From positions 75,825 to 139,824 of the IMG/VR virus record IMGVR_UViG_3300012344_000011: a stretch of 64,000 nt of DNA. The stretch is one strand, 5' to 3'. Below, in pieces: positions 13,030-59,148 of this stretch. The notes under the pieces are model-generated. The model was not told where the DNA came from. It was given only the letters and a program-made list of their open reading frames with translations, and searched no databases. This DNA comes from a virus. Its lineage: Duplodnaviria > Caudoviricetes. Position numbers and translations under genes: made by a program. How positions within the stretch are numbered: position 1 is the stretch's first letter; every line of letters starts with the position of its first letter.

Positions 13030-13827
13030 CTAACAGAATTGCCAGTGATATCCACCAGCAGTTTTTTGTTCATTAATACAACACTTAGAAACTCCTGCGC
13101 TTGATTTTAAGCCAATTGCTTTTGCAGCTTTGCACGCAGAAGAATAAACCATATTTGTTTCTATACATTTAACAGGCTTTGCTCAAGCACTATTTTGACT
13201 TAATTTTTCCTTATGCTCTTCAGAGAATTTTTTCCCATACATGGGATTATTTTCGCCACAATATTTTCCCATTTTACTTTCAGACAACTTCTGTCTATGT
13301 TCTTGAGATAATTTCTTCCCCTTTAAAGATTTGCCAAGTTTACGTATTTGTTCTCTCTGATTTTCTCTTAAACCAGAATCTCACTGCATTTTTGTGGTAG
13401 AACCACTTGGAAGAATCTCTATATTATTAGATTCACATGCTTTCTGAACGGTAATTGGAGCACAACGAAATTTTTCACAAACTGCTCTTTCAGATCCTAG
13501 CTCAATATAAGCTTGTGCCAGTTCCTGATACCTATATTTTAACCTTCCTTCTCCGCCGAGGGTCATATTATAGCCATTGTTACAACTATCTAAAAGAGAA
13601 ATTCAATAGCGTTCTTTCTTATTTAGCTCAGAATCATCGCAATGCTCTAATTCTTGAATTTCAAAATTTTCTTCGCCATATTTTCTCATGGCCTTGTAGA
13701 GATAGTATGGAACTCCATTTTTGGCGTTTCTTTTGTGCTCTTTAAATCTATGTTCTATAGTTCCCGCAGTTTGGCCAATATAAATTTTTCCTGTAAGAAC
13801 ATTTGTTATTTTATAGATACAGCCCAA
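13030..13827 (-). CDS. Free-standing GIY-YIG homing endonuclease with NUMOD repeats; TGA=Trp at 13603, 13381, 13183
   Basis: IYKITN..IYIGQT motif; KERY-W-ISLLDSCNNGYNMTLGGEG; GENNPMYGKK; C-terminal KTAGGYHWQFC then TAG. Confidence 0.85.
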
Positions 13828-13876
13828 AATATCACCATCCTCTCCTTGTTATCCTTTAATATGCATATTACAAGAT

Positions 13877-16018: not shown

Positions 16019-18030
16019 TTAAGCTTGATTCCATCCACTAACTTTAGTCTCATCAGCACCAGCGCCTTCACGACCATCTTCTGTTGTCTTAGCATCAGTA
16101 TGTCCTGAAGCACTTGAAATAGTATCAATAATATCAATGGCATAGAGAACCTTACCAGACTCACCACGGACCTTACCAAGAGTACAATCAATAGTAAAGT
16201 CAAATGTGGAGGGATCGCCAGTTGCAGCCATATTGAATGTAAAGTTACCCTGAATCTTACCTTTTGGAATAATGAATGTCGCAGGGAAGTCTTTACCAGT
16301 ACCTTCATCACGGAATAGGGTTTCAGCTTCAATATAGAAAGTACCACCAAAGTTTTCTGCATCAACAGTAAGAGTTGTTACAGGCATATCTGTTGTTGCA
16401 TAGCAGTCAACTAAGCAAGTACGTCCATTATATTTGGCAATATCTTTAACATTAGCGGGAGCAAGAGTTATTACTAAACCATCGGTAGTATTAGCAGTAA
16501 CATCATCAATTTCACCTTTACTAATATATTCAACAACGCCACTACCGTTATTATCTAAAATCATAGCATAAATTTGATACTCTTCTGAAGTACCAATAGT
16601 TAAATCTCCGCCTTCTACTTTAGCAGAATCAGCTACATAGATCTCATATCCAGTAAAATCGTCTGCTTTAACAGTAATTTTAGCACTTGTCACACCGCTA
16701 TCTCCAGAAGTAACATCTACAGTGCCCTCAAGCGTTAGGTGAACCTTCTTAGCCTTCTTTTCTTGGTTAACAACACCAGCGCCAGAAAGCATTGAGAAAG
16801 AAATTGGAGATAAAAGTGCTTCTGTAATTGTAAACGTTGCCGTTTTTTCACCTCGTTGTATTCCAATAAGTTCGTTACTCTCATTGCGTTCTCTCATGAA
16901 CTGCTGCACCTTTATTTATACGTGCAGATTAGACTATATCTTCATCCTGCTTTGCAGGAGTTTCGCACTTCGACCGCACTTGCGGCCTACGTCCCTGTGG
17001 ACTAGTCGTTGAACCTTCTTTGTTTTAAACAATTCTCTCGTTGAGTTATTTTTTGTAAATTATTCAAATGATTATTAGATGGGTTTCCATCAATATGATC
17101 AATGACAAAGCCATCTAAATCAAAATCATTATGAAAAGTACAATAAACAAGTCTATGCACATAGTAATGTTTTTTATTATTAAAACTTACTCTAACATAT
17201 TTTTGGTTTTTATCTAAATATAACAACCTATTGGTTTTATTATTTTTTACTCTACCAAAAGATGAAACCGAGTACATATTGTTCTCTTGGAAAACCATTC
17301 ATTCTTCACCTTCTAAGTTTTCTAGGTGATACCTAGGAGGTCTTGGGTTATGCTTTTTTATAGCTTTATGTTCTGCGCAATTCTCTTGCGCATCAACCCA
17401 TTTTAGGTTTTCTTTCTTATTATTCAATTTATTTTCATCTATATGATGAACATATGGTAAATTTTTTAGGTTTGGAATAAAATATTCAGCAACAAGTCTA
17501 TGAGCATAAACCATTTTAGATAATTTCCTTTTAGATGTTGAAACCTTATCTTGAATAGCTAATGCATACACTTTATAACCTGTATTATCTATTTTTCCTT
17601 TTAAAAATCTAGATGTTTTTTTACTATATAATCTACCATCAGAATAAATCAAATAATCTGAATCTTCTTTTAATTGTTTAAAATCAAAGCTTGGCTGCTG
17701 ATTGTCTTGCATAAAACCTCCTTTATTTCATACTCAATATAATATAACATAAAAAAGTCTTTTGTCAAGAGTTCCCAGCAATTCACGAAATTTTTCTATA
17801 GCGTATTACTACGCTACCTGAGCTAGTGTAAAACAATCCCAGGCAATTAGACGAGCATTACCACGCCCACCTTGCGCGTAGACTGTGGTAGTTGCGACTT
17901 CCATATTAGAAGCTGTTGCTGTATCAATATAAAGGCAAGGCTGATATGGCTCAAAGTGTTGAGAGCCAATGTCCATCGCTGCTAAAGGACGAAAAGTAAC
18001 ATTAGCAATATCGCGTACACCAAATCGCAT
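16019..18030 (-). CDS. Major tail tube protein split by a group I intron (exons ~17836-18030 and 16019-~16852)
   Basis: Exon 1 MRFGVRDIANVTF...AQGGRGNARLIAW joins GEKTATFTITEALLSP...IPKGKIQGNFTFNMAATGDPSTFDFTID; position in the tail module. Confidence 0.8.
16853..17835 (-). mobile_element. Group I intron in tail tube gene, carrying an HNH endonuclease
   Basis: P GAATTGCTGGGAA, Q AATCAGCAGCC, R GGTTCAACGACTAG and S GAAGATATAGTCT in order. Junction uncertain by 1 nt. Confidence 0.85.
17002..17712 (-). CDS. Intron-encoded tandem NUMOD4/HNH homing endonuclease; TGA=Trp at 17299
   Basis: AHRLVAEYF..VHHIDENKLNN; GEE-W-MVFQENNMYSVSSFGRV (NUMOD4 EEW); VHRLV..IDHIDGNPSNNHLNNL. Own promoter (TTGACA ~17768) and AGGAGG RBS inside the intron. 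Confidence 0.85.
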
Positions 18031-20746: not shown

Positions 20747-22314
20747 TTAGTTAACCTCCATTATTTTACTGAAGGTTGATTTAAAGCTACCGTCTTTACC
20801 AATCTCTCTGCGGCAATATAGCCTTTGTAAATGAAAACCTCTAGATTCATATTCTTTTTTCATAGCAACAAGTTGTTTGATGTGACTAGCTTGACTTGTA
20901 AATTTAAAATCTGCATTTGTTATCCTATAAGCTTTTTATCTTATAGCTCTTATGCTTCCTATTCGCATAAGGTCGGCATATCTTTTTACCCTTTTGGGGT
21001 ATTCAGTCTCGTGGGATATTTATCTTTTTGGCTGTATTTTTCTAGATATTCAAAATATCTTTTCTTTTTCCTTGGTAAAGAAATATAATCATTATCATAA
21101 AAAATTTTACCTAAAGTAAAACTATCTTTTTTGTTATAAGTCATATAATAAGCATTATGTTTATGTCTTTCATCTACATGAATATTCCTCAATGTAACAG
21201 AATAATTTTCACTTAAAAAAATATTTATATCTTCTAATAAAGATCTACTTGCACAGACTATATTCATTCTAACTCTTTTTTCTTTTTTAAGCTCATATAA
21301 ACTACCATCACCATCAAAGAAACCTCTAATAAAATCTATTTTATACTCAAATGGTAAATCAGGTATTCTCTCTAATTTGAAAGTTTTGTTACTCACAATA
21401 CCATAAGATTCCATCGTTTTTCTAATTTTTTCAGAGGTAAAAGCTAATGAAACGTAAGGATGTCCATTCGTTGATAGATACTCATGAATTTCTCCTGCAT
21501 ATTGAAGTTCATTCTTTATCGTTTCAAGCAAATCTTTATCTTTTTTTTGTAAAGATAATATAACTCTATTTTGTGCACCTCTGGTTGAAGGCAAATAACC
21601 ATCAGCCGCATACATACCCAATAACCAAGCTCCATTATGACTTTCAAAATTATAGTTATCATTAATAGAGAATTTTCTCAAATCAGGTTTAAGTCTATTA
21701 CCAACGGCTCTAGCTTCTGCGGCATTCCTGATATATACGTTATTTTCTTTTAGAATATTCTTTACTTTTTCTTCACCAAAAGGTAGACTCAGTTCTTTTA
21801 CGATTCTTGTTCTACCATATTTTTTATTTTCATATAAATCAATGATTTTGTCTTGTAGCTCTTTTGGAACTGTTATTTTTGCCATAAAAGTTTTTCTCCT
21901 ATGCTCTGCACGTGTCAATGCTTTTAAACAAAGACTTCCGTTCGGGTTAGCATCTCAGCTTTCCTGTTTTTACTGAAATTATATTTATTTATTTCTAAAT
22001 AAAAGGACCAGACTCGATCCGCTATATTTTTGTCTAACATTATCAACTGTTGCTAGTTGATAACCAATCCACTCCGCAATCATATATTGACGAATAATCA
22101 TCATTTCTTCTGTTGTTAAATCATCATCAAATTCACGACTGTCTAAGTCAACTTCTAATAGATTTTTATTCTTTGGAAATTCAAAGGATGGGAGTGCTGC
22201 TAATAGAATTTCATCTAGGATTTGTTTGGTATCTTCTTCTGTAAGTTCAAGATACATATCATCAGTGATTCCAGCTAGGAAGAAGTCCTCCATTTCATCA
22301 AAAGATGTAGCCAT
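20747..22314 (-). CDS. Putative head-tail connector split by a group I intron (exons 22017-22314 and 20747-20913)
   Basis: Splicing GGAT|CAGAT restores RQKYSGSDFKFTSQASHIKQL...IMEVN-stop. Confidence 0.75.
20914..22016 (-). mobile_element. Group I intron carrying a LAGLIDADG endonuclease
   Basis: 5' exon ends in U with P1 GGAT/GTCC, P10 TCTG/CAGA, terminal G at 20914; core GAAAGCTGAGATGCTAACCCG, GAGACTGAA, AAGATATGCC. Confidence 0.85.
20986..21888 (-). CDS. Intron-encoded double-motif LAGLIDADG homing endonuclease
   Basis: AWLLGMYAADGYL and FIRGFFDGDGSL motifs; likely start MAKITVP after an AGGAG RBS. Confidence 0.85.
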   Translation of the reverse strand, partial: FMAKITVPKELQDKIIDLYENKKYGRTRIVKELSLPFGEEKVKNILKENNVYIRNAAEARAVGNRLKPDLRKFSINDNYNFESHNGAWLLGMYAADGYLPSTRGAQNRVILSLQKKDKDLLETIKNELQYAGEIHEYLSTNGHPYVSLAFTSEKIRKTMESYGIVSNKTFKLERIPDLPFEYKIDFIRGFFDGDGSLYELKKEKRVRMNIVCASRSLLEDINIFLSENYSVTLRNIHVDERHKHNAYYMTYNKKDSFTLGKIFYDNDYISLPRKKKRYFEYLEKYSQKDKYPTRLNTPKG

Positions 22315-28133: not shown

Positions 28134-31100
28134 CTAATTTTTAGATCCAATTTTAGTGAACAAAGTCATAGCACTCAAATCTCTACTTGCTCTTCCTTTT
28201 CCTTTGTCCTCTTGGAGCTTGCAATAATAAAGACCATAAATCAAAGCAGATACTTTATCGTGCTTGATTTTTGCGTTTGCGGGCTTGAGGATAATAGTTT
28301 GTCCCTCAGATTTATCAACCAAATTGGCAAGCTGTTCCCGCAATACATTAGTAAGAACAAAAGGCTTGAGGTATTCATTTCTTTTTTCAATAGACATTTT
28401 TTGCCCACTACTTTGAGACATAAGTTTGTTTTTAGCAATACTATCATCAATTAAGAATTTTAGTTTACCATGCTGCATCTGCGTTTGGCAATAAGAATAC
28501 ATTTCAGAGTTGAGAGTAGCGTTTGCCCGCATTAGATACATCGCATTATGAATAGTATCTGGCGTCTCAAAGTTTTTATATTTTCTTCTTCCTGTTTTAG
28601 GATCTGGATCATCGTTGATAACACCTCAGTTATATAAGACTTCTCCTGTTTGCGGATCTACTTGATCTGTTACTAAGAAGTCTACTAGACCTGTACCTAA
28701 GCCATTAGCGTCAACCACTGCTACTTTACAGCGGTACTGTTGGAAAATTTGTTTGATTCTAATTGCTTGTTGTCCAAAGTGTTCCGCATCAATTGTATAA
28801 ATATTCACAATTTTTTTGATTGGTACGCCTGTCAAAGATGGCATTACTTTGATCACTAAAATTTCAGTCGTACAATTGAAACGACCAACATCAACGCCCA
28901 AGAGGTAGTATATCTTAGGAGTGTTTTTACCCGAAGGAGTATATTCAGGTAAGTTGATAATGCGGTTGCGGTCAAACACTTCTGTACTAAAGAATGCGGC
29001 TTCCACATCTCCTGCTCAATTAGAGTTATATTCTCTTTCAAATGTTGCTTCATTGAACGTCATATAATCCAATATTTCTATTGGTACTGACTATCTCTTA
29101 CTTAATATTATATTAAGAAACCCTTTTCGAAGCACTTCTCACTAGTGCCCCTACTTCTGTAAACCAGAATAGTCGATACAGCTTCAATTATTCTTCATAT
29201 TTTTATAAATATGAAGAATAAAAGCTTGCCACGGGATTACCATATCATAAAGACTTAGGCTTCCCCGTTAGCTTATTTTAGTAAATAAACCCCGCTGAGA
29301 AACGGAAAAAGTTTTTAGGGCGCGTTCTTCTTTCACCCTCAAGTTTGAGGTCGCTAACGAAAGAGCCAGAGATAAGCTTTTCCGCAACTGGGATTCTCCA
29401 GTCTCCACCAAAAACAAAAGCCTGATCTGGTCTAGCAACCATTTGACACAACATTTGAATTAGTCTATCATAAGCATAAGTATTCTTATATCCCGCAGAC
29501 GTAACAAAAGTTTGCGCTTGGTTCAAAATTTCATTTTCATCTACACTTCCGTCTGGAAGTCTTCTAGAAACATTAAGAGTAGGAATAATAACTTGCTGTA
29601 GCATATCTTGGTCTAATGTTGCAGCTTCTTCCATCACATATATTCTACGTAAATCGCCAATTTACGCACGTTTTTAACTGCTGCATATCACTATGCAGAT
29701 TAGACTATATCTTCTTATATTTATAATATAAGTTCCCTTTTTCCACTATCAGTGGCTTATAGTGTACGATTTTCATCTAGTCGTTGAACCTTTTGCTATC
29801 CGCAACTTGGCTGCTGATTGTCTAATCTGTTTACTTTTTGAACTATCACGCTTACCATTTCTAGTTACGTTGTAGTGTAAACAGTCCTAAAGAGTTTCCA
29901 GCAATTAAGGGAATTTATTGAGCTGAGCTGATGGATAATGTTAACCCAGCTTGAAAACGACGTCCTCTTGTTTTATCAGAGCACGCAACATTTTCTATTG
30001 TTGAACCATTTTTAAAAGTATAAATTACGCTATCTTTTGTTTGTCTTGTGCGGACGGTGCCCATTCCACGTGTATCCCAAATAACTTCTTTTGAGAAAGC
30101 TGGAATAAGTTTACAAATTTCTGAAATTTTGTCACTCAAAATTGATGCTGACTGTTCCTTCAGTTCTGTTATCGCAAAGGCTTTTTATCCTTTACTTCTT
30201 ATACTTTTTTTCGTATAAGCTCGGCATATCTTTTCTTCCTATAAAGCAATAGGAGTCGCGGCCTCTTGGTAGGATTATATCTTTTCACCTACTATGCTCT
30301 GCCCCTGACTGTAGTTCCTACAGCCTTCGGTTCGGGTTAGCGTCTCAGCCTTCCCGCTTAGTTCCGCGATTTATTTTTACTAAATTACTTTAGTAGAGGG
30401 CAAGTTTAGTATTTTGACATTCTTTATAATTCAAATATTTTTGATATTTTCTATCTAAATAAACAGTTGTATCACTATAAATCAAATCTAAAAAAGCATT
30501 GATTTTTTCTTTATCTCCAGTTTGTATTCTATATGCTCCATCAGGTTTTTCATAATGAACTGGATATAATGAACAATTTTCAAATAAACCAACTTGGTTT
30601 TTCAACCCTTTCAAAAAATCTTGACTACCTAAAATATTCATTCCTAGCTTATTTGCATACCAGAAAGAGCCATCTCCATCAAAGTATCCTCTAAGAAAAG
30701 GTGCTAAAAAATTATTTGGAACTTGTTCTTCATTAGGAAAATTTTAGAATAAGACTTCTACGTGATACACATCCTAGCTTTACTAAGTCTTGATTTATTG
30801 TTTTATTTTTGAATTGATAACGAAAACCACTAAGATTTTCTCTATGATATATTTTATTGTTTCTTCCAATAAAATTTTTGAATTTGACAAGATGAAAATA
30901 ATCTTGCTCTTGTAGAGTTAGTTCAATACCATAGTCATAGTTTTTCCATTATGAATATATCCATCTGCTTCTAAGAATCCAAGTCAATAAGCTTTTTCTT
31001 CATTATCAATTATCTTGAATTTATTTTCATCAAAAAACAATCTAAGCACTCCCTTCACTGTCTATATATTTTTACCCTCAGCAACAGTGAACAAGTGCGC

Positions 31101-49883: not shown

Positions 49884-51353
49884 CTAGTAGTTTACCTTTT
49901 CATTGATATAATCAATGATATCCCAACAACCATTCTCCTTCATATTGATGAAATCGAACACCTTGTTTCCAAGAGAAGTCAGAAGTACAACATCCTTGTC
50001 CTTGGGATCGCATACCTGAGTATGGTAGTTACCAAGATCAAATGAATAAACCTTGCTCTTACCATACTTAGCGCTATAAGTCTTATAGGAATCAAAACCA
50101 TTATGCAAATAATAGTAATCACTTCCCATAATCTGCATATCACTGATAATGAAGATGCGGGAATAGCTCTTCTTAAGAAGAGCAAAAGCCGTTCCAATGA
50201 CAGTGCCATAGCCGCATCCATCATTCTTAGCAAATGCTTCGATCATCTCAAAAACATTTTCAGAAGTATAGCCAATTGCCCACTCTGCATTAGTGCCAAA
50301 CTTGACAACATCAACCTTACCAAGATTCTTCAAAGCCAATGCTACTGCAAACACAGCTCCAGCTTCCTTGATACTGATGACACTGTTCTTACTGATAGGA
50401 TCTTCCATAGACCCGGACACATCAAGTAAAACAGCACTGTTACCATCAAAAGAAGGAACATTATCTATCGAAACAGAGAAAGCATATCCCAAAGACTTCG
50501 TAATCTCCTCATCACAGAGACCACTCTTTACTAGAGTCTTATAGCAAGTATAAATCTGATAAGGGAAAACCAAAGACTTCTTGATGGCTTCTGCGTTACA
50601 TAGCTGATCGCAAAGAACCTTAGTATAAGGAATCTTAACGATCTTTGGCAAGAACTCCATAGTCTGTAAAATATTGCGCACATTCCGCAAAAGAGCTAAA
50701 TATCCCAACTTCTCTTCTGCCAAAAGTTCACACCAAGCATAACCCTTTTCTTCTTCACTCTTGGATACACTGATACGCTGCTCCCAAGTTTCACACTTAG
50801 GTAGCACACCATTCTTATAAGCACAAATAGCAGAAGAAGTAGCATGGCAAATATTAATGCAATCAAACATATTATATACCTTACCACTCAACTTATACTT
50901 ATCAATGCTGTACGCTCCAAGAGAAGAAAGATAATCACCGCAGCCTCTTACAAGCGCGTGGCTACGCTTCTGACCCAAGGCATCGACAGCCGCAAAAATC
51001 TCTGCGACATCATCTGCACGATGACAAAAATTCTTATAGAACTGACGCTTGCGGTCGAAGCTCTTATCATTGAGCCACGCAGCCGTCATCTGCGAAATAG
51101 AACGCATACCAAGTTCATTGCGGGCATACACAGTTGCCTTCGCAATAAACTCATAACCATATGCCTTTGCCATCTTAGCAGTTAGATCAAAATAACGAAC
51201 CATCTGCTTTTCCGCAGGCTCATAGTAACGATCTTCTACCATACAACTACAAAGACAATTGAACCATTCCTCGGTGAGATCCTTTACAAAAACTTCGCCG
51301 CCTTCATAGGAAACAACATTAGAATACTTAGCTTCGTTACGATTAAAATTCAT
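49884..51353 (-). CDS. Ro60/TROVE + vWA RNA-binding protein (Rsr-like)
   Basis: TROVE: YEGG, YARNELGMRS, RADD, TWE, LGYLALLRNVRNI, VFPYQIY. vWA MIDAS: LLDVSGSM, GT, ISDMQ. Confidence 0.88.
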   Translation of the reverse strand: MNFNRNEAKYSNVVSYEGGEVFVKDLTEEWFNCLCSCMVEDRYYEPAEKQMVRYFDLTAKMAKAYGYEFIAKATVYARNELGMRSISQMTAAWLNDKSFDRKRQFYKNFCHRADDVAEIFAAVDALGQKRSHALVRGCGDYLSSLGAYSIDKYKLSGKVYNMFDCINICHATSSAICAYKNGVLPKCETWEQRISVSKSEEEKGYAWCELLAEEKLGYLALLRNVRNILQTMEFLPKIVKIPYTKVLCDQLCNAEAIKKSLVFPYQIYTCYKTLVKSGLCDEEITKSLGYAFSVSIDNVPSFDGNSAVLLDVSGSMEDPISKNSVISIKEAGAVFAVALALKNLGKVDVVKFGTNAEWAIGYTSENVFEMIEAFAKNDGCGYGTVIGTAFALLKKSYSRIFIISDMQIMGSDYYYLHNGFDSYKTYSAKYGKSKVYSFDLGNYHTQVCDPKDKDVVLLTSLGNKVFDFINMKENGCWDIIDYINEKVNY

Positions 51354-51463: not shown

Positions 51464-51591
51464 AACTCTTGGAAATCATTAAGAGACGCTTGTGCTCTAC
51501 CCATTGAGCTACCTGACACCGCAGGATTGGACTCGAACCAATAACCTTTTCTTTATAAATAGAAGTAAGTCTCTTAACCATCACAAAAGTT
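51464..51591 (-). ncRNA. Y-RNA-like unit 4 with permuted tRNA-mimic domain (YrlA-like)
   Basis: Shared scaffold enclosing T arm ATTGG-TTCGAGT-CCAAT, closed acceptor CCTG/CAGG, then D arm TAGCTCAATGGGTAGAGC. Confidence 0.8.
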
Positions 51592-51595
51592 CCTT

Positions 51596-51681
51596 GCATT
51601 AGCGGAAACCATATAAAAGACGTAAGTTTTGGGTCTAAATATAATTTTTAGAAGTAAGTCTTTTATCCATCACGCTATTGC
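51596..51681 (-). ncRNA. Y-RNA-like unit 3, short loop
   Basis: GCAATAGCG-TGATGG-ATAAAAGAC-TTACTTCT..GTCTTTTAT-ATGGTTTC-CGCTAATGC. Confidence 0.7.
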
Positions 51682-51690
51682 TTTTACTTT

Positions 51691-51802
51691 TAGCTAATCT
51701 TGAAAATCACTAAAAGGCAATACGCTCTAACCCATTGAGCTACCCGCTGGAAAGGAGTCGAACCAATATCTTATTAGCCTTTCAACAATCACAAAATTAC
51801 TA
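51691..51802 (-). ncRNA. Y-RNA-like unit 2 with permuted tRNA-mimic domain
   Basis: TAATTTTG-TGATTG-TTGAAAGGC..GGTTCGACTCC..GGTAGCTCAATGGGTTAGAGC..GCCTTTTAG-TGATTTT-CAAGATTA. Confidence 0.75.
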
Positions 51803-52843: not shown

Positions 52844-53447
52844 TTATCTATAAAGAATTTCTTCTTTTAAATTAGCATCTAAATATAAATCGTACCAACG
52901 TTTAGTTGTTGTATTTTTCATATTATATACGTCAATTGTAATAGAAAATTCTTTATTCTGGTTGTTCTCATTGGCTTTTTTTGTTCCGTGAGTATAACTA
53001 CCCACATTCTCGATTTCTTTTAACATTTCATCTTTAGTCAGAACAAAGAAAACACTTTTATCAATATCATTTTCATTAATATAAAAACAATAATAAAAAT
53101 CAATATTCTGCCAAGGTCTTATTTGACGAATATTTAATTTTTCGTCCTTGTTTGTAAACGAAGTTTTAAATTCATAATAATTATCGTTATTATCTTTAGC
53201 GTCTCCTTTATTAAAAGAAGCTGACACTGGTTGGTAATTCATTTTTTTGCATAAAAATTTTTCTACCAATGGAGCCTTCTTTTGAGTTGATAAAGAAGAA
53301 ATTAATGTATAAAAACTATATCCGTCTGTTATTTCATAAACATTGGTGTTTAAATCTTCTTCTGAAAATTGATGTATAAGAGAATCTATTTTTTGTACTT
53401 TTTTTTAGAGTTACAAGGTTTTGCTTTTGAATTTCAGCTATTAACAT
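52844..53447 (-). pseudogene. Putative restriction endonuclease frameshifted in an A8 tract (53399-53406)
   Basis: GDAKD..YYEFKTS PD-(D/E)XK-like motif. The ATG at 53447 is out of frame with the body across A8. Adjacent to the MTase. Confidence 0.55.
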
Positions 53448-53527
53448 AATTATAATTATACCTTTTCATTATTTTTATGGACGTCGAGGACGTATCTTAT
53501 CACTTGGCAACAGTCTCATTAGTTATA

Positions 53528-54184
53528 CTAATTAAAATATTCCCAGTGATAACCTCCGCAAGTTTTTCTCTTTCCTTTACAACAAGCAGAAATATGAGAT
53601 CTACATTCAGTAGTTGAAGATTTATTATTATCTACAAGCCATCTAGCTGCTTCACTAGTAGAATTAAAAACTAAATTTTCTTCAATACAACGAACCTTAA
53701 TTGGAGAAGCAATAAGACCTTGTCTTGATAGCTCTGACGAATAATATCGTTTTTTCCAATCAACATTATCTCTATACTGAGAAACGATATTTTTAATGGA
53801 ATCAATAGAACAATCAAGAATTTTTGCAATCTCTGAACTAGTTAAAGATGTTGTATCATATAATTTCAAAACTTTCTTGTAATTTATTAAAGTTTTTCCA
53901 TCTCCACCCATCGTAGCATTATAACCATCATTATAAGAATTATAATATTTTATCCAATATTTTTCTTTTTCAGATGCTTCGTCACTAGAACATTCTTCTA
54001 TGATAGAAATATAAAAATGATCCTCTCCATATTTTGATATTGCGTTATAAAGAGGACGTTTTTCTTTTCTATTTTTTTTACTATCAGCGCAATGTTCTTT
54101 GAATCTCTTTTCAACAGAAAAATTTGTTTTTCCAATATAAACTTTATCATTTATGTCGTTTTCAATTTTATAAATGTATGCCAA
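53528..54184 (-). CDS. GIY-YIG homing endonuclease with NUMOD1
   Basis: YIYKIEN..VYIGKT, EKYWIKYYNSYNDGYNATMGGDG, KTCGGYHWEY. Confidence 0.85.
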   Translation of the reverse strand: MAYIYKIENDINDKVYIGKTNFSVEKRFKEHCADSKKNRKEKRPLYNAISKYGEDHFYISIIEECSSDEASEKEKYWIKYYNSYNDGYNATMGGDGKTLINYKKVLKLYDTTSLTSSEIAKILDCSIDSIKNIVSQYRDNVDWKKRYYSSELSRQGLIASPIKVRCIEENLVFNSTSEAARWLVDNNKSSTTECRSHISACCKGKRKTCGGYHWEYFN

Positions 54185-54222
54185 AATTAATCAGCTCCTT
54201 TTTATATTAATATGATTCAATT

Positions 54223-54275
54223 TATTGCATTAGTATAAAACAGACACGCCACGTGAAGGCTGCAATATTGTGTCC
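54223..54275 (-). ncRNA. Minimal HDV-like (theta) ribozyme at the tRNA-Met 3' end
   Basis: P1 GGACAC/GTGTCT (G1.U), P2 TATTGCA/TGCAATA, P3 GCC-TTCACGT-GGC, J4/2 CTAA. Confidence 0.85.
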
Positions 54276-54347
54276 TCGCGGGAGGTGGAATCGAACCACC
54301 ATATCATAGCTTATGAGGCTATTGAGTTACCAGTACTCTATCCCGCG
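54276..54347 (-). tRNA. tRNA with CAT anticodon (Met; Ile2 not excluded), no encoded CCA
   Basis: CGCGGGA/TCCCGCG, ATAGC-CTCATAA-GCTAT, GGTGG-TTCGATT-CCACC. Confidence 0.9.
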
Positions 54348-54348
54348 A

Positions 54349-54424
54349 TGGTGCCTTCTGTAGGACTTGACCTACACTCCTCGGTTTAAGAGACCGCCAC
54401 TTTGACCAATTAAGTTAAGAAGGC
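54349..54424 (-). tRNA. tRNA-Lys(CTT) with a 6-nt T loop
   Basis: GCCTTCT/AGAAGGC, CGGT-CTCTTAA-ACCG, ACCA end. Confidence 0.8.
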
Positions 54425-54433
54425 ATAATAAGC

Positions 54434-54496
54434 TTTGCTCCCTCTCGAACTATTAAACACTTGATTAACAGTCAAGCCTGAGTACAAGGGAGTAAA
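54434..54496 (-). pseudogene. Armless tRNA-Asn(GTT)-like element
   Basis: TTTACTCCCT/AGGGAGCAAA stem plus GCTTGA-CTGTTAA-TCAAGT arm; D and T stems absent, GTTCGA remnant. Confidence 0.55.
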
Positions 54497-54627
54497 AATT
54501 ATTGTGGGTCAGATTTGCATATTCGGCACTGACCCGTTGCAAGTCTCCTTTTCTTGCGCCCCGATTCACGACATTAGCCTTTGTCCAATCAGTGTTACCG
54601 TCCTAGTGGCTAATTCAGGCAACCGCT

Positions 54628-54888
54628 TGGTTCCTTGGGTGGGACTCGACCCACGACTAAAAGATTACTTTAGTACATCGCTTTCGCATTGTAGTCCGGA
54701 CTTTCTCTTCTTCCTCTTGGGAAGTCCCGTGTAAAGTCTCTACACATAGTATCTTAAAAATACCTTGCTCGAGATTAGCATATGTTTCCACTTAGCCTTC
54801 CCCGAATTAACGGGATTTTCATTACATATCGCTGCATAATGCTACTAATTACTAAAAATCTTCTACGCTACCACTGCGTCACCAAGGA
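54628..54888 (-). tRNA. tRNA-Lys(TTT) interrupted by a group I intron
   Basis: 5' half TCCTTGG-TG-ACGC-AGTGGTA-GCGT-A-GAAGA-TTTT; 3' half TAA-TCTTT-TAGTC-GTGGG-TCGAGT-CCCAC-CCAAGGA-ACCA. Confidence 0.85.
54668..54854 (-). mobile_element. Compact 187-nt group I intron in the anticodon (position 35/36)
   Basis: AATTCGGGGAAGGCT (P), GCTAATCTCGAGC (Q), GTAGAGACTTT (R), AAGAGAAAGTCC (S), terminal G. Confidence 0.8.
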
Positions 54889-54939
54889 ATTTAATAATAA
54901 TATTATAACATATTATTTATTCTTTTGTCAACAAAATCT

Positions 54940-55650
54940 TTATACCGACCCAATAGAAGAGATAAGAGAACGAGCAACTATTTCGTGAAGAACTCGCGGC
55001 AAAAGCTCTGAAACAAACTTGTCGTTACCCAGCTCTTCTTCTTCAATAGCATCACGATTATTCATAAAATCATCATATATAGCATCAGCTATATCAACTC
55101 TTCCTTCTATAAAAGAAGAAAAATTCTCAGCATCAATTTCTGTATAACCAGTGCTAAAGCAATCTTCAAATGAAGCACCTGCCGCAACCTTCTCAACCAT
55201 TTTACATAAACGATCAATCTCTGCGACACAAACATTAGCTTTTCTTGGATAACTTCTTGCATAACAACGATTGGTATCAATAAAAGCAAACAACTGTTCC
55301 ATCATTAGCGCCTTGTCAGAAAAAGCAATCTCAGAATTATACTTCTGCAAAGTATTCCATTGAGCAGAATACATAGGATTGATAACAATATCCTTCTCAA
55401 CAAGGGTCATTAAAGAAAGAAACTCCTGATCACGAAGAAGGTCTATATATTCTCGAAGATCAACAATTTCACACCACATACCATCTTCAAAGATATTACT
55501 ATTCTCGATCATATGTTCTCCATCAAGCAAATCTTGCAGAGTAGGAATAACAATCAGCTTGCCGCACCCATCAATTACAGAGAAGCAAAGCCAATCACGA
55601 TAATCAACAATAGAACGAAGTTCATCAATCTTTGCGGCATAATTACTCAT
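54940..55650 (-). CDS. Degenerate nucleotidyltransferase-like protein
   Basis: LIVIPTLQDLL..DLREYIDLL..INPMY..W..L..EIA resembles phage nucleotidyltransferases, but no GS..DxD motif is visible. Confidence 0.4.
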   Translation of the reverse strand: MSNYAAKIDELRSIVDYRDWLCFSVIDGCGKLIVIPTLQDLLDGEHMIENSNIFEDGMWCEIVDLREYIDLLRDQEFLSLMTLVEKDIVINPMYSAQWNTLQKYNSEIAFSDKALMMEQLFAFIDTNRCYARSYPRKANVCVAEIDRLCKMVEKVAAGASFEDCFSTGYTEIDAENFSSFIEGRVDIADAIYDDFMNNRDAIEEEELGNDKFVSELLPRVLHEIVARSLISSIGSV

Positions 55651-55830
55651 TTTCAATCCTTTTCACTACATCTTCAAAACTTGGAATTACAAATTTTTCT
55701 TTTATCTTATTACTAAGAAAAAAATCGAAAGACTCTTGACAAGAATCAGACCATTCATCATAATCAACCAAACAAAGGAAACCATTGAGTTTATTCATAT
55801 AATTCTGCATTCTATTACCTTTCTATTGGT

Positions 55831-55888
55831 AACTCAATTTCAGTAAAAACAGGACACACCACGTGAAGGTATTGAGTCAAAGTGTCCC
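55831..55888 (-). ncRNA. Minimal HDV-like (theta) ribozyme at the tRNA-Ser 3' end
   Basis: P1 GGGACAC/GTGTCCT, P2 GACTCAAT/ATTGAGTT, P3 ACC-TTCACGT-GGT, J4/2 CTGAA. Confidence 0.85.
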
Positions 55889-55889
55889 G

Positions 55890-55975
55890 CAGAATCTACC
55901 AGAATCGAACTGGCACTAGGTTATTCACCTAGGAAAGCTTAGCAGGCTTCTGCGCTACCATTACGCCAAGATTCC
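55890..55975 (-). tRNA. tRNA-Ser(GCT), no complete encoded CCA
   Basis: GAAGC-CTGCTAA-GCTTT, long variable arm CTAGGT/ACCTAG, G73. Confidence 0.9.
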
Positions 55976-55982
55976 ATTTAGC

Positions 55983-56069
55983 TGGTGCAAGCAAAGAGAT
56001 TCGAACTCTCAATCCACAACGGGCGCTTGATTTTGAGTCAAGATTGTATGCCAATTCCAACACGCTTGC
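55983..56069 (-). tRNA. tRNA-Leu(CAA)
   Basis: CTTGA-CTCAAAA-TCAAG, long variable arm, ACCA. Confidence 0.92.
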
Positions 56070-56210
56070 ATAATTATATTATACCATATTTACATAGCTG
56101 CTGTCAACCACTTTCTCTTGGAGGGAATGAATTTTAACTTTCATTCTTCCCTTACTGACAAATATATATTATATCATATTTACATAACTATCGTCAATAA
56201 GTATTTTATA

Positions 56211-56285
56211 TGGTGGTTCTGAGAAGAGTTGAACTTCTGTTTAGCGCTTATCAGGCGCTTGTACTAACCATTATACGACAGAACC
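56211..56285 (-). tRNA. tRNA-Ile(GAT)
   Basis: AGCGC-CTGATAA-GCGCT, ACCA. Confidence 0.92.
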
Positions 56286-56377
56286 AAAGGCTGAAGCACT
56301 TTAGTGACTCAGACATTGTGCTTCATATATACTTAGCTGCTTTTGAGTCTTATCGAACAAGTATGCAGCAACCTTGT

Positions 56378-56455
56378 TGGTGTCCCTGGCAGGATTCGAA
56401 CCTGCGCCCCACTGTTTAGAAGACAGTAGCTCTAATTCCACTGAGCTACAGGGAC
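56378..56455 (-). tRNA. tRNA-Arg(TCT)
   Basis: ACTGT-CTTCTAA-ACAGT, GCAGG-TTCGAAT-CCTGC, ACCA. Confidence 0.93.
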
Positions 56456-56556
56456 TTAATAATAATATTATAATATATTTTTTATTCTTTTGTCAAGAAA
56501 TTTTCTTTATAAAAACTTAATACATCAAGACCAAGAGAATCATCTAAAATCATATC

Positions 56557-57114
56557 TCAAGCATTCTTGCGGGCAGCTGCTCTATTTATAGTCTCTCGAT
56601 GAATAGACTGTATCTTAGATACAGCACCATTCTTTATAAGAGTCTTTAGAGAAATTGGCTTATAACCAATTACATTTGCCGCAAAATTCTTATGATAGCG
56701 ATCGTTTTTCTGCCATTGAGAATGATCATGTCCATGAAAATTCACAACAAAATCAAGTCCCTGAATAGGCTCGTGAGAAAGAAGAATCTTCTCTGCGATC
56801 ATAAGAGGTCCATCATAAACTTCATCAAAGACTTCAAGATACTTAGCCTTGGCTTCATCATCATGATTACCCTTGATCAATACCTTGTAAGCCTTAATTC
56901 GCTTTGCTACTTCAAGATCACCAACATCACCCAATAGAACAAGAGTATCATTCTTATGAGCAATTTTGTTTATGATAGCAAGCTGCTGTTCTGCGGGAAT
57001 CCAGTTCTTGTCCATCAACTTACAGTCCGCATCATTGAAATGCGTATCAGAGAAGATGTAAACAGAACCCTTTTCAGCCCACTTCTGAAACGGTGCATAT
57101 AACATATCAATCAC
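56557..57114 (-). CDS. Calcineurin-like metallophosphoesterase
   Basis: SDTHF, LGDVG, KGNHD, SHEP, HGHDH; start position approximate. Confidence 0.85.
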   Translation of the reverse strand: MIDMLYAPFQKWAEKGSVYIFSDTHFNDADCKLMDKNWIPAEQQLAIINKIAHKNDTLVLLGDVGDLEVAKRIKAYKVLIKGNHDDEAKAKYLEVFDEVYDGPLMIAEKILLSHEPIQGLDFVVNFHGHDHSQWQKNDRYHKNFAANVIGYKPISLKTLIKNGAVSKIQSIHRETINRAAARKNA

Positions 57115-57140
57115 ATTTACATCTTCTCCAATCAAAATAA

Positions 57141-57476
57141 TTAGGCTAGGCAATCAATATGATGACGCAAGAACGCACGATTCATATCACCCATTACTAC
57201 CATTTCAACAGTATCGAAACGAATTTGACCAGTAATTCCCATACCAGTCTTGTTAAGATAATCAAAAGCTTCCTTCTCTAGAACACCACGAAGCTGCTTC
57301 TCAGAATCAGTTTCACTCATTTCGTCTACAAAACGAATGCGAATAAAGACAAGTTGATCATCGTCATAAGCAACTGCATCAATATTCTCACTTACAACCT
57401 TGTCAACGATTTCATATCCACGCTTCTCAAGAAAAGTAATCGCCGTGCGCAAACCCCTAGAATAAAGATTTTCCAT
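57141..57476 (-). CDS. YraN/UPF0102-like nuclease-fold protein, catalytic ExK lost
   Basis: FLEKRGYEIV..IDAVAYDDDQLVFIRIR..IRFDTV..RAFLRHHI. Confidence 0.65.
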   Translation of the reverse strand: MENLYSRGLRTAITFLEKRGYEIVDKVVSENIDAVAYDDDQLVFIRIRFVDEMSETDSEKQLRGVLEKEAFDYLNKTGMGITGQIRFDTVEMVVMGDMNRAFLRHHIDCLA

Positions 57477-58405: not shown

Positions 58406-59131
58406 CTAAACCTTATAAAGAACATTATAAAGACCAATCATGCGGCTGTCAAGATCCTCAGACCACTGTTGATCAAAATGCATATGACCGTGTACCCAAA
58501 CATCAAAGTCCAACTCTTTACGAAGAATCTCAAGATACTTTTCACCGCAAGTTCGTATATAACGATCAAGGAGGAAAGGCAACATTTCTTTGACCAAAAC
58601 AGGTGCTTCGTGAGTAACAATCAGATCAAAATGTTCTTTATCATGCTCTGCCATAAAATCAAGACACGCATCAATGTTGACTACTTCTTGCGGCCACCAG
58701 TTGATTCCTTCAGTGCGCCATTTCTTATCATGACTCTCCGCACCATTGATACACAAAATATGTTTACCATCAATATCAAGCGTAGCAATAGTGTCTATAA
58801 TATAGATATTCTCAAAAGTAGTACCCATATAAGTGCATTGCCACATAGTACCACTATTCAAAAAATCAGGAGTACAATGCGGCATAGCTTCATAAATAGG
58901 ATAGCACTCGTGATTACCAAGCACAACAATAGTTTTCCAAGGCTTAGAATTTAGCCAATTCAAACGATAGTAATCCTCTTCACTATCACCGTGCCAGTCC
59001 CAGATAACACCAAAGTCACCTGCAATAATAACATAATCTTCAGAAGTTAGCTTTCGCATTTCCGGACTCTGGTTATAAGAGAAAGCTTCAAAGACTTCCC
59101 CGTGAATATCTCCATGACAATAAATTGCCAT
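58406..59131 (-). CDS. Calcineurin-like metallophosphoesterase
   Basis: GDIHG, AGDFG, LGNHE, THEAP, HGHMH. Confidence 0.88.
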   Translation of the reverse strand: MAIYCHGDIHGEVFEAFSYNQSPEMRKLTSEDYVIIAGDFGVIWDWHGDSEEDYYRLNWLNSKPWKTIVVLGNHECYPIYEAMPHCTPDFLNSGTMWQCTYMGTTFENIYIIDTIATLDIDGKHILCINGAESHDKKWRTEGINWWPQEVVNIDACLDFMAEHDKEHFDLIVTHEAPVLVKEMLPFLLDRYIRTCGEKYLEILRKELDFDVWVHGHMHFDQQWSEDLDSRMIGLYNVLYKV

Positions 59132-59148
59132 TTTTACCTCCAATTGTA

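Follow-up and report, generated by a model that had tools for sequence, protein, structure and literature searches.

The window analyzed here, a 64,000-nucleotide (nt) stretch that forms the last 64 kb of the 139,824-bp IMG/VR virus record IMGVR_UViG_3300012344_000011, carries two short elements, designated Rz1 and Rz2, that by analogy with published theta ribozymes are very probably self-cleaving minimal ribozymes of the hepatitis delta virus type (HDV-like) in the theta class, of a sub-type marked by a U21·U39 mismatch in P1.1. Since tRNA-linked theta ribozymes have already been published, the new element is this sub-type, which, judged from sequence, has been overlooked. Both elements lie in a tRNA region on the minus strand (56500 to 53500). 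The record has a GC content of 34% and is 96% complete (CheckV), and its PHROG matches, including a weak large-terminase match, agree with the tailed-phage setting of such ribozymes. Coordinates below refer to the window unless marked "genome".

An earlier note on this DNA had proposed two minimal HDV-like folds with an identical L3, and both were recovered on the minus strand by a descriptor and a covariance model:

54275-54223, minus strand: Rz1, putative minimal HDV-like (theta-class) ribozyme
Rz1 parts: G1 54275; P1 54275-54270 with 54247-54242; P2 54267-54261 with 54229-54223; P3 54260-54258 with 54250-54248; L3 54257-54251; P1.1 partner GU 54241-54240; L4 54239-54234; J4/2 CUAA 54233-54230; proposed catalytic C 54233
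55888-55830, minus strand: Rz2, putative minimal HDV-like (theta-class) ribozyme
Rz2 parts: G1 55888; P1 (7 bp) 55888-55882 with 55857-55851; P2 (9 bp) 55879-55871 with 55838-55830; P3 55870-55868 with 55860-55858; L3 55867-55861; GU 55850-55849; L4 55848-55844; J4/2 CUGAA 55843-55839; proposed catalytic C 55843

In the segment order of the published theta ribozymes (P1, J1/2, P2, P3, L3, P3′, P1′, P1.1′, L4, J4/2, P2′), Rz1 (53 nt) reads GGACAC, AA, UAUUGCA, GCC, UUCACGU, GGC, GUGUCU, GU, UUUAUA, CUAA, UGCAAUA, and Rz2 (59 nt) reads GGGACAC, UU, UGACUCAAU, ACC, UUCACGU, GGU, GUGUCCU, GU, UUUUA, CUGAA, AUUGAGUUA. When the descriptor was compared with the published segmentation, both elements showed the minimal HDV-like order, with a short L4 and no P4. 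P1 is closed in each by a G1·U wobble (G54275·U54242 in Rz1, G55888·U55851 in Rz2); this pair was G·U in 22 of 23 aligned rows, and the remaining row, mis-registered by MAFFT, was G·U by its own segmentation. L3 is UUCACGU in both, in agreement with the consensus U-N-C-N-C-G-Y, and is closed by a 3-bp P3 (GCC/GGC in Rz1, ACC/GGU in Rz2). J4/2 fits the theta pattern C-N-R-A with an optional further base and begins with a C that is the sole C between P1′ and P2′, and the catalytic-C column is conserved across the 23-sequence alignment. The compensatory nature of P2 and P3, also claimed earlier, held up: between the two copies P2 differs at six of seven aligned pairs and P3 at one of three, and every change is compensated.

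The position of the two folds relative to their neighboring tRNAs is equally precise. The tRNAs concerned, together with one that had escaped ARAGORN, are as follows:

54276-54347, minus strand: tRNA(CAU), elongator Met or Ile2 type (Rfam RF00005, 63.3 bits; ARAGORN)
55889-55975, minus strand: tRNA-Ser(GCU) (Rfam, 54.7 bits; ARAGORN)
54352-54424, minus strand: tRNA-Lys(CUU) (Rfam, 60.2 bits; missed by ARAGORN)

In the Rfam tRNA model, tRNA(CAU) ends at A73 (54276), which puts G1 of Rz1 at 54275, 0 nt past the tRNA; tRNA-Ser(GCU) has G73 at 55890 and an encoded C74 at 55889, and G1 of Rz2 follows C74, 1 nt past G73. This is the placement that the earlier note had given, and with distances of 0 and 1 nt both predicted cleavage sites lie near a tRNA 3′ end, as is characteristic of theta ribozymes. 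The tRNA(CAU), which has a C1-G72 pair and an anticodon stem without the three G-C pairs of the initiator, does not encode CCA, and tRNA-Ser(GCU) lacks the full CCA; they are the candidate substrates of Rz1 and Rz2, respectively. Conversely, CCA is encoded by all eight tRNAs found in the genome without a ribozyme (Arg, Ile, Leu, Lys(CUU), a split tRNA ending at 54634, UCA, and two of the early region), against neither of the two ribozyme-linked tRNAs, a split with odds of 1 in 45 if two of ten tRNAs were drawn at random. ARAGORN itself called Arg(UCU), Ile(GAU), Leu(CAA), Ser(GCU), and CAU in the region; the tRNA-Lys(CUU) that it missed has the anticodon loop CUCUUAA, a T loop one base short, and an encoded CCA. 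In their architecture, their location at tRNA 3′ ends, the lack of CCA on the tRNAs, and the phage setting, the two elements match the published theta system (PMC10879173), which supports the earlier assignment to this class.

Could such short elements arise by chance? An IMG/VR scan anchored on the L3 core only (CCTTCACGTGG, a gap, TGTT) returned at least 117 loci, giving 120 anchored sites with the window included. P1, P2, P3, and the catalytic C were all present at 20 of these 120 sites (among the matches listed, as for all IMG/VR counts below), while shuffled flanks predict 0.005 passes per 120 sites. A covariance model built from 17 ribozymes of other phages, with the window excluded, gave scores of 53.8 bits for Rz1 and 34.1 bits for Rz2 (E 4.6e-12 and 1e-6, respectively); the next-best match in the window reached 16 bits, and there was none in the remaining 76 kb of the genome. 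Our own loose descriptor matched only Rz1 and Rz2 on both strands of the 139,824-bp genome, that is, two sites in 140 kb, both exactly at tRNA 3′ ends. In an alignment of 23 sequences, paired cells made up 95.5% and 12 of 17 pairs varied on both sides, compared with 37-52% paired cells in slid controls.

Several observations weigh against reading the two elements as active theta ribozymes. The sequences in the covariation count were selected by a pairing descriptor, which makes that count circular; for this reason the covariance model was made from other phages only, and it and the anchored test alone escape the circularity. Against RF02682 (HDV-F-prausnitzii), Rz1 scored 18.4 bits (E = 3) with a gathering threshold of 44 bits, and Rz2 had no Rfam HDV-type match at E values up to 10; at gathering thresholds Rfam called no ribozyme for the two elements. 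Minimum free energy folding recovered P1 and P3 of the elements, but the nested-only folding energy was about that of shuffled sequences (z about 0), since P2 is a pseudoknot that the calculation is unable to score. Finally, the second P1.1 pair is a mismatch in both Rz1 and Rz2, and in HDV ribozyme mutagenesis a weaker P1.1 lowers activity. The shortness of the elements and their sub-threshold Rfam scores would be the grounds for regarding them as chance look-alikes of the HDV-like motif; given the anchored test and the covariance model, which exclude chance for both elements, the probability of this explanation is negligible.

The P1.1 mismatch bears on a different question, namely whether the folds still cleave. 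In both copies P1.1 is UC/GU: C22-G38 is kept while U21 and U39 are mismatched, so that one complementary pair is found where the motif has two, NC with GN. In about 205 theta and minimal-drz rows of the published supplement, P1.1 is only CC/GG, TC/GA, GC/GC, AC/GT, or TC/GG, and whereas mismatches do occur in P1 and P2 of these rows, P1.1 is always complementary (PMC10879173). It therefore seems that the published descriptor accepts only a paired P1.1, and, as far as these about 205 supplementary rows represent it, the published theta motif appears to exclude U·U at this position. Neither the window's ribozyme sequences nor TTCACGT had a match in the supplements of PMC10879173, where rows mostly segmented by vertical bars defeat string matching.

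When IMG/VR was scanned with positions 21 and 39 left unconstrained, 80 loci were listed, which reduced to 41 unique complete folds. P1.1 was CC/GG in 21 of them, UC/GU in 18, GC/GC in one, and UC/GA in one; there was no C21/U39 and no U21/G39, so that U21 nearly always goes with U39. The UC/GU group has a 5-nt L4 (UUUUA, UUAAA, UUUCA), and its nearest described relatives are published GC/GC theta rows with the same L4 length (PMC10879173). ARAGORN placed a tRNA 3′ end within 1 nt of 12 of the 18 unique UC/GU ribozymes, whose tRNA partners were Ser, Thr, Gln, Leu, Arg, and Cys, and the junction of Rz2, with GC directly before G1, also occurred on tRNA-Ser(UGA) in three other phages. Suppressor tRNAs were not enriched near the group (2 of 22 loci, vs. 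1 of 19 for CC/GG). An alternative P1.1 register, A23-C24 with G38-U39, was excluded by members (L112, L049) in which position 23 is U and U39 is retained. From these sequences the U·U state looks like a recurrent and frequent feature in IMG/VR, not a private defect.

A decayed or strongly attenuated theta relative, in which U·U blocks a useful cleavage rate and host RNases make the tRNA 3′ ends, would fit the single standard P1.1 pair that is left (C22-G38) and the exclusively complementary P1.1 of the about 205 published rows (PMC10879173). Random decay, however, would not yield the pattern found: U21 and U39 co-occur (18 UC/GU vs. 1 UC/GA), elsewhere in the fold covariation is perfect across many phages, and G1 stands exactly at tRNA ends. 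Moreover, both tRNAs are without CCA, as expected of ribozyme-processed tRNAs. We accordingly regard attenuation as unlikely, and theta-class ribozymes of a U·U sub-type as the preferred reading. A bolder proposal, which we put forward tentatively and would not yet favor over its negation, is that U21·U39 is no defect at all but marks a large tRNA-linked theta branch that the published descriptor overlooks and that is roughly as frequent as CC/GG among UNCACGU-type IMG/VR folds, and in which the weakened P1.1 may tune cleavage speed. If true, tuned cleavage could set how transcripts are split at tRNA-to-mRNA junctions between tRNA release and 5′-OH, ribozyme-capped mRNAs.

Related folds were noticed during these scans. 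Two matches came from a search with the exact core that the copies share, P1′ included: a chance one in coding sequence (L001) and a relative that bears a P4 (L002). The latter, at L002:3026-3101 (plus strand), is an HDV-like fold with P1, L3, and UC/GU as in Rz1, yet with a full P4 hairpin and no adjacent ARAGORN tRNA. A near-identical fold was present in seven contigs (L012, L019, L034, L055, L080, L086, L103; e.g., L019:3083-3149), with L3 UUCACGU, an 18-21-nt L4, CUUC replacing CUAA, and a distance of 180-420 nt from tRNA-Leu(UAA); this could be either a ribozyme that has diverged or an artefact of the descriptor. In a scan of bacterial and archaeal genomes, matches appeared only on tRNA-rich contigs of gut metagenome-assembled genomes, which are probably phage DNA, and pointed to no clear host.

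We then considered the transcripts in which the two ribozymes would lie, for which the following minus-strand features are relevant:

54902-54931, minus strand: sigma-70-type promoter, TTGACA, 18 nt, TATAAT, 12/12 (consensus match only)
56078-56107, minus strand: sigma-70-type promoter, 12/12 (consensus match only)
56168-56197 and 56467-56496, minus strand: two more sigma-70-type promoters, 11-12 of 12 matches
53528-54184, minus strand: GIY-YIG homing-endonuclease-like gene, 218 amino acids, TTG start (Pfam PF01541, E 6.5e-13; open reading frame [ORF] list)
55810-55643, minus strand: orf55 (ORF list)
55656-54940, minus strand: orf238 (ORF list)

By consensus match only, the strand thus has three perfect and one 11/12 sigma-70-type promoters, all with 18-nt spacers. 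Behind the promoter at 54931-54902 lie a split tRNA-Lys, a spacer RNA, tRNA-Lys(CUU), tRNA(CAU), Rz1, and the GIY-YIG gene; behind that at 56107-56078 lie tRNA-Leu(CAA), tRNA-Ser(GCU), Rz2, orf55, and orf238. The promoter at 56197-56168 is directed at a short hairpin-forming stretch with no tRNA. A terminator scan of the minus strand found no terminator-like site. The GIY-YIG gene has an AAAGGAG Shine-Dalgarno sequence and starts 38 nt past Rz1, and the first ATG of orf55, also with a Shine-Dalgarno sequence, is 19 nt past Rz2. No Pfam or PHROG family was matched by orf55 or orf238, and no relatives of orf238 were found in IMG/VR. Among relatives of the ribozymes, several have a ribosome-binding site and an ORF within 22-38 nt, while three have another tRNA within 5-9 nt, so that ribozymes often, but not always, stand at a junction of tRNA array and mRNA.

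These surroundings also bear on whether the folds are structured RNAs that do not cleave at all, acting as a protective or translational mRNA leader or as a pause or termination signal after tRNA arrays. A start codon 19-38 nt downstream of both elements and a P1′ followed by GUUUU(U) would speak for such a role. The terminator scan was empty, though, and in relatives the same fold is followed 5-9 nt on by another tRNA and no gene; the conserved J4/2 C and the invariant L3 are, besides, features of a catalytic core that a leader or terminator would not need. We consider a non-cleaving role less probable still than attenuation. On the preferred reading as cleaving theta-class ribozymes, and with a promoter-driven tRNA array on one side of each ribozyme and an mRNA on the other, cleavage should also make that mRNA's 5′ end. 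From the sequence, a new 5′ end on the GIY-YIG mRNA at G1 of Rz1 is plausible (a 12/12 promoter, no terminator, and the TTG 38 nt on), and likewise for Rz2 and orf55.

Cleavage is predicted because published theta ribozymes are active in vitro (PMC10879173), and on the basis of known HDV-like chemistry. In the mechanism that we propose, transcription of the promoter-driven tRNA arrays would run on into the protein-coding genes, and each ribozyme would fold as a nested double pseudoknot, in which the C opening J4/2 (54233 in Rz1, 55843 in Rz2) and Mg2+ would catalyze attack by the 2′-OH of the nucleotide preceding G1. Cutting 5′ of G1, while the RNA is being transcribed or shortly afterwards, would release tRNA(CAU) up to A73 and tRNA-Ser(GCU) up to C74, each with a 2′,3′-cyclic phosphate, and the downstream mRNA would keep a 5′-OH and a folded ribozyme leader, with possible effects on its stability or translation. 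Healing of the tRNA end and addition of CCA would have to follow, through host enzymes or phage phosphoesterases.

The DRB0094 RNA ligase family is 140-fold enriched in theta-carrying phages (PMC10879173), and a weak match to this family was found here at genome 4513-5700 (minus strand; 38.9 and 35.3 bits, below cut-off). A second RNA ligase (PF09414) lies at genome 21435-22025 (plus strand), and two metallophosphoesterase genes (56557-57153 and 58406-59143) lie close to the tRNA region; from their sequences, the ligases and phosphoesterases are candidates for end healing, nothing more. No PF01743 CCA-adding enzyme, RtcB, or Terminase_6N was found in the genome.

Other RNAs accompany the tRNA arrays. 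At 54634-54888 (minus strand), tRNA halves with the acceptor UCCUUGG/CCAAGGA, a D arm, a T arm, and an encoded CCA are separated within the anticodon loop by about 190 nt; a terminal-G rule would yield a Lys(UUU) loop, and the stretch gave no match to the Rfam group I intron model at E values up to 10. Between it and tRNA-Lys(CUU) lies a G+C-richer spacer of about 200 nt (54425-54633, minus strand), with no Rfam match, no long ORF on the minus strand, and a folding energy slightly better than that of shuffled sequences (z -1.6). Outside the window, at genome 6950-7300 (minus strand), ARAGORN called an 86-nt tRNA-Met, unconfirmed by Rfam, preceded by about 250 nt of G+C-richer non-coding sequence that may be a further structured RNA.

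The earlier note had also described the phage as TGA-recoded and suggested that a ribozyme-linked tRNA(UCA) might be found. The recoding is well founded: with TGA read as sense, the minus strand of genome 58-97 kb merges into frames of 900-3,066 codons with scattered TGAs, an in-frame pattern that TAG and TAA do not show there. A GIY-YIG/NUMOD3 homing-endonuclease gene at 13033-13848 (minus strand) contains three in-frame TGAs; its GIY-YIG Pfam domain crosses one of them, and this TGA aligns with a Trp of the standard-coded paralogue at 53528-54184. This sequence evidence supports the conclusion that the phage reads TGA as Trp in its virion module. The suggested link, in contrast, did not survive a whole-genome search: the genome's tRNA(UCA), at genome 51418-51514 (plus strand; 94-97 nt, long variable arm, G73, ARAGORN label SeC), encodes CCA and has no ribozyme behind it, and a ribozyme-linked suppressor is for that reason absent here. 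The same tRNA(UCA) type recurs in several unrelated IMG/VR phage contigs (L002:747-842, L003, L138). HNH and LAGLIDADG endonuclease genes lie near the recoded gene, at 17005-17805 and 20989-21969.

Elsewhere, a Ro60-like gene with TROVE and VWA domains (49884-51353, minus strand) has just upstream of it a tRNA-like RNA called by the ARAGORN intron mode (51518-51749, minus strand), an arrangement reminiscent of the bacterial Y RNAs encoded beside Ro-protein (rsr) genes. Two Rfam group I introns, at 29068-29357 and 29681-29953 (minus strand; 50.1 and 70.8 bits), lie beside an ORF at 28137-29090 with a weak large-terminase PHROG match. A megablast of GenBank phages with 53000-57000 returned zero matches.

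In the main, the finding confirms the published theta system in one more phage. Beyond this, the U·U sub-type, to which nearly half of the folds in one IMG/VR sample belong, would escape published searches, in which pairing of P1.1 appears to be a requirement. Existing tallies of theta ribozymes and their partner tRNAs may consequently be too low, with a skew to Met, Leu, and suppressor tRNAs, whereas the partners of the sub-type are mostly Ser, Thr, Gln, Arg, Leu, and Cys tRNAs. The present genome also offers an internal contrast, with ribozymes exactly on the CCA-less tRNAs that close a tRNA array before an mRNA, and a dual role in forming the tRNA 3′ end and the mRNA 5′ end is directly testable in it.

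Among known systems, the closest are the theta ribozymes of Kienbeck et al. 2024 (PMC10879173), which are minimal HDV-like ribozymes that accompany tRNAs in gut Caudoviricetes. Their cleavage site falls at most 5 nt, and mostly at most 1 nt, to either side of a tRNA 3′ end, and only 4.5% of their linked tRNAs encode CCA (PMC10879173). Rz1 and Rz2 share with them the element order, a 6-7-bp P1 from G1·U, a 3-bp P3, the L3 consensus, the absence of P4, a J4/2 of CUAA or a 5-nt variant, the site at the tRNA 3′ end, and a CCA-less tRNA; one published row, with T and GC, GC and TTTTA followed by CTGA, even has the same 5-nt L4 (PMC10879173). They differ in U21·U39, set against the complementary P1.1 of the about 205 published rows, in the TGA-recoded host phage, and in the ordinary, non-suppressor partner tRNAs; TGA-recoded genomes are 6% of those with tRNA-linked theta ribozymes (PMC10879173). 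The minimal HDV-like ribozymes of the drz-Mtgn-1 type, known first from metagenomes and later from tailed phages (PMC10879173), likewise have an HDV-like core without P4 but, compared here by description only, are described without tRNA context.

The HDV-like ribozymes of R2 and L1Tc retrotransposons resemble the proposed arrangement in that self-cleavage frees the downstream RNA and the ribozyme stays as its 5′ leader, and, according to an R2 figure legend, some of the R2 ribozymes contain nucleotides that interrupt pairing in P1.1 or P3 (PMC3774820, PMC4035085). Those ribozymes, however, belong to eukaryotic mobile elements and have a full P4 and a long J1/2, and their upstream product is rRNA or flanking RNA, with no tRNA to mature. 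Among proteins, RNase Z cuts CCA-less tRNA precursors directly after the discriminator, leaving a 3′-OH ready for CCA addition. The putative ribozymes described here would do the same job, with the difference that they would leave a 2′,3′-cyclic phosphate that has to be healed first.

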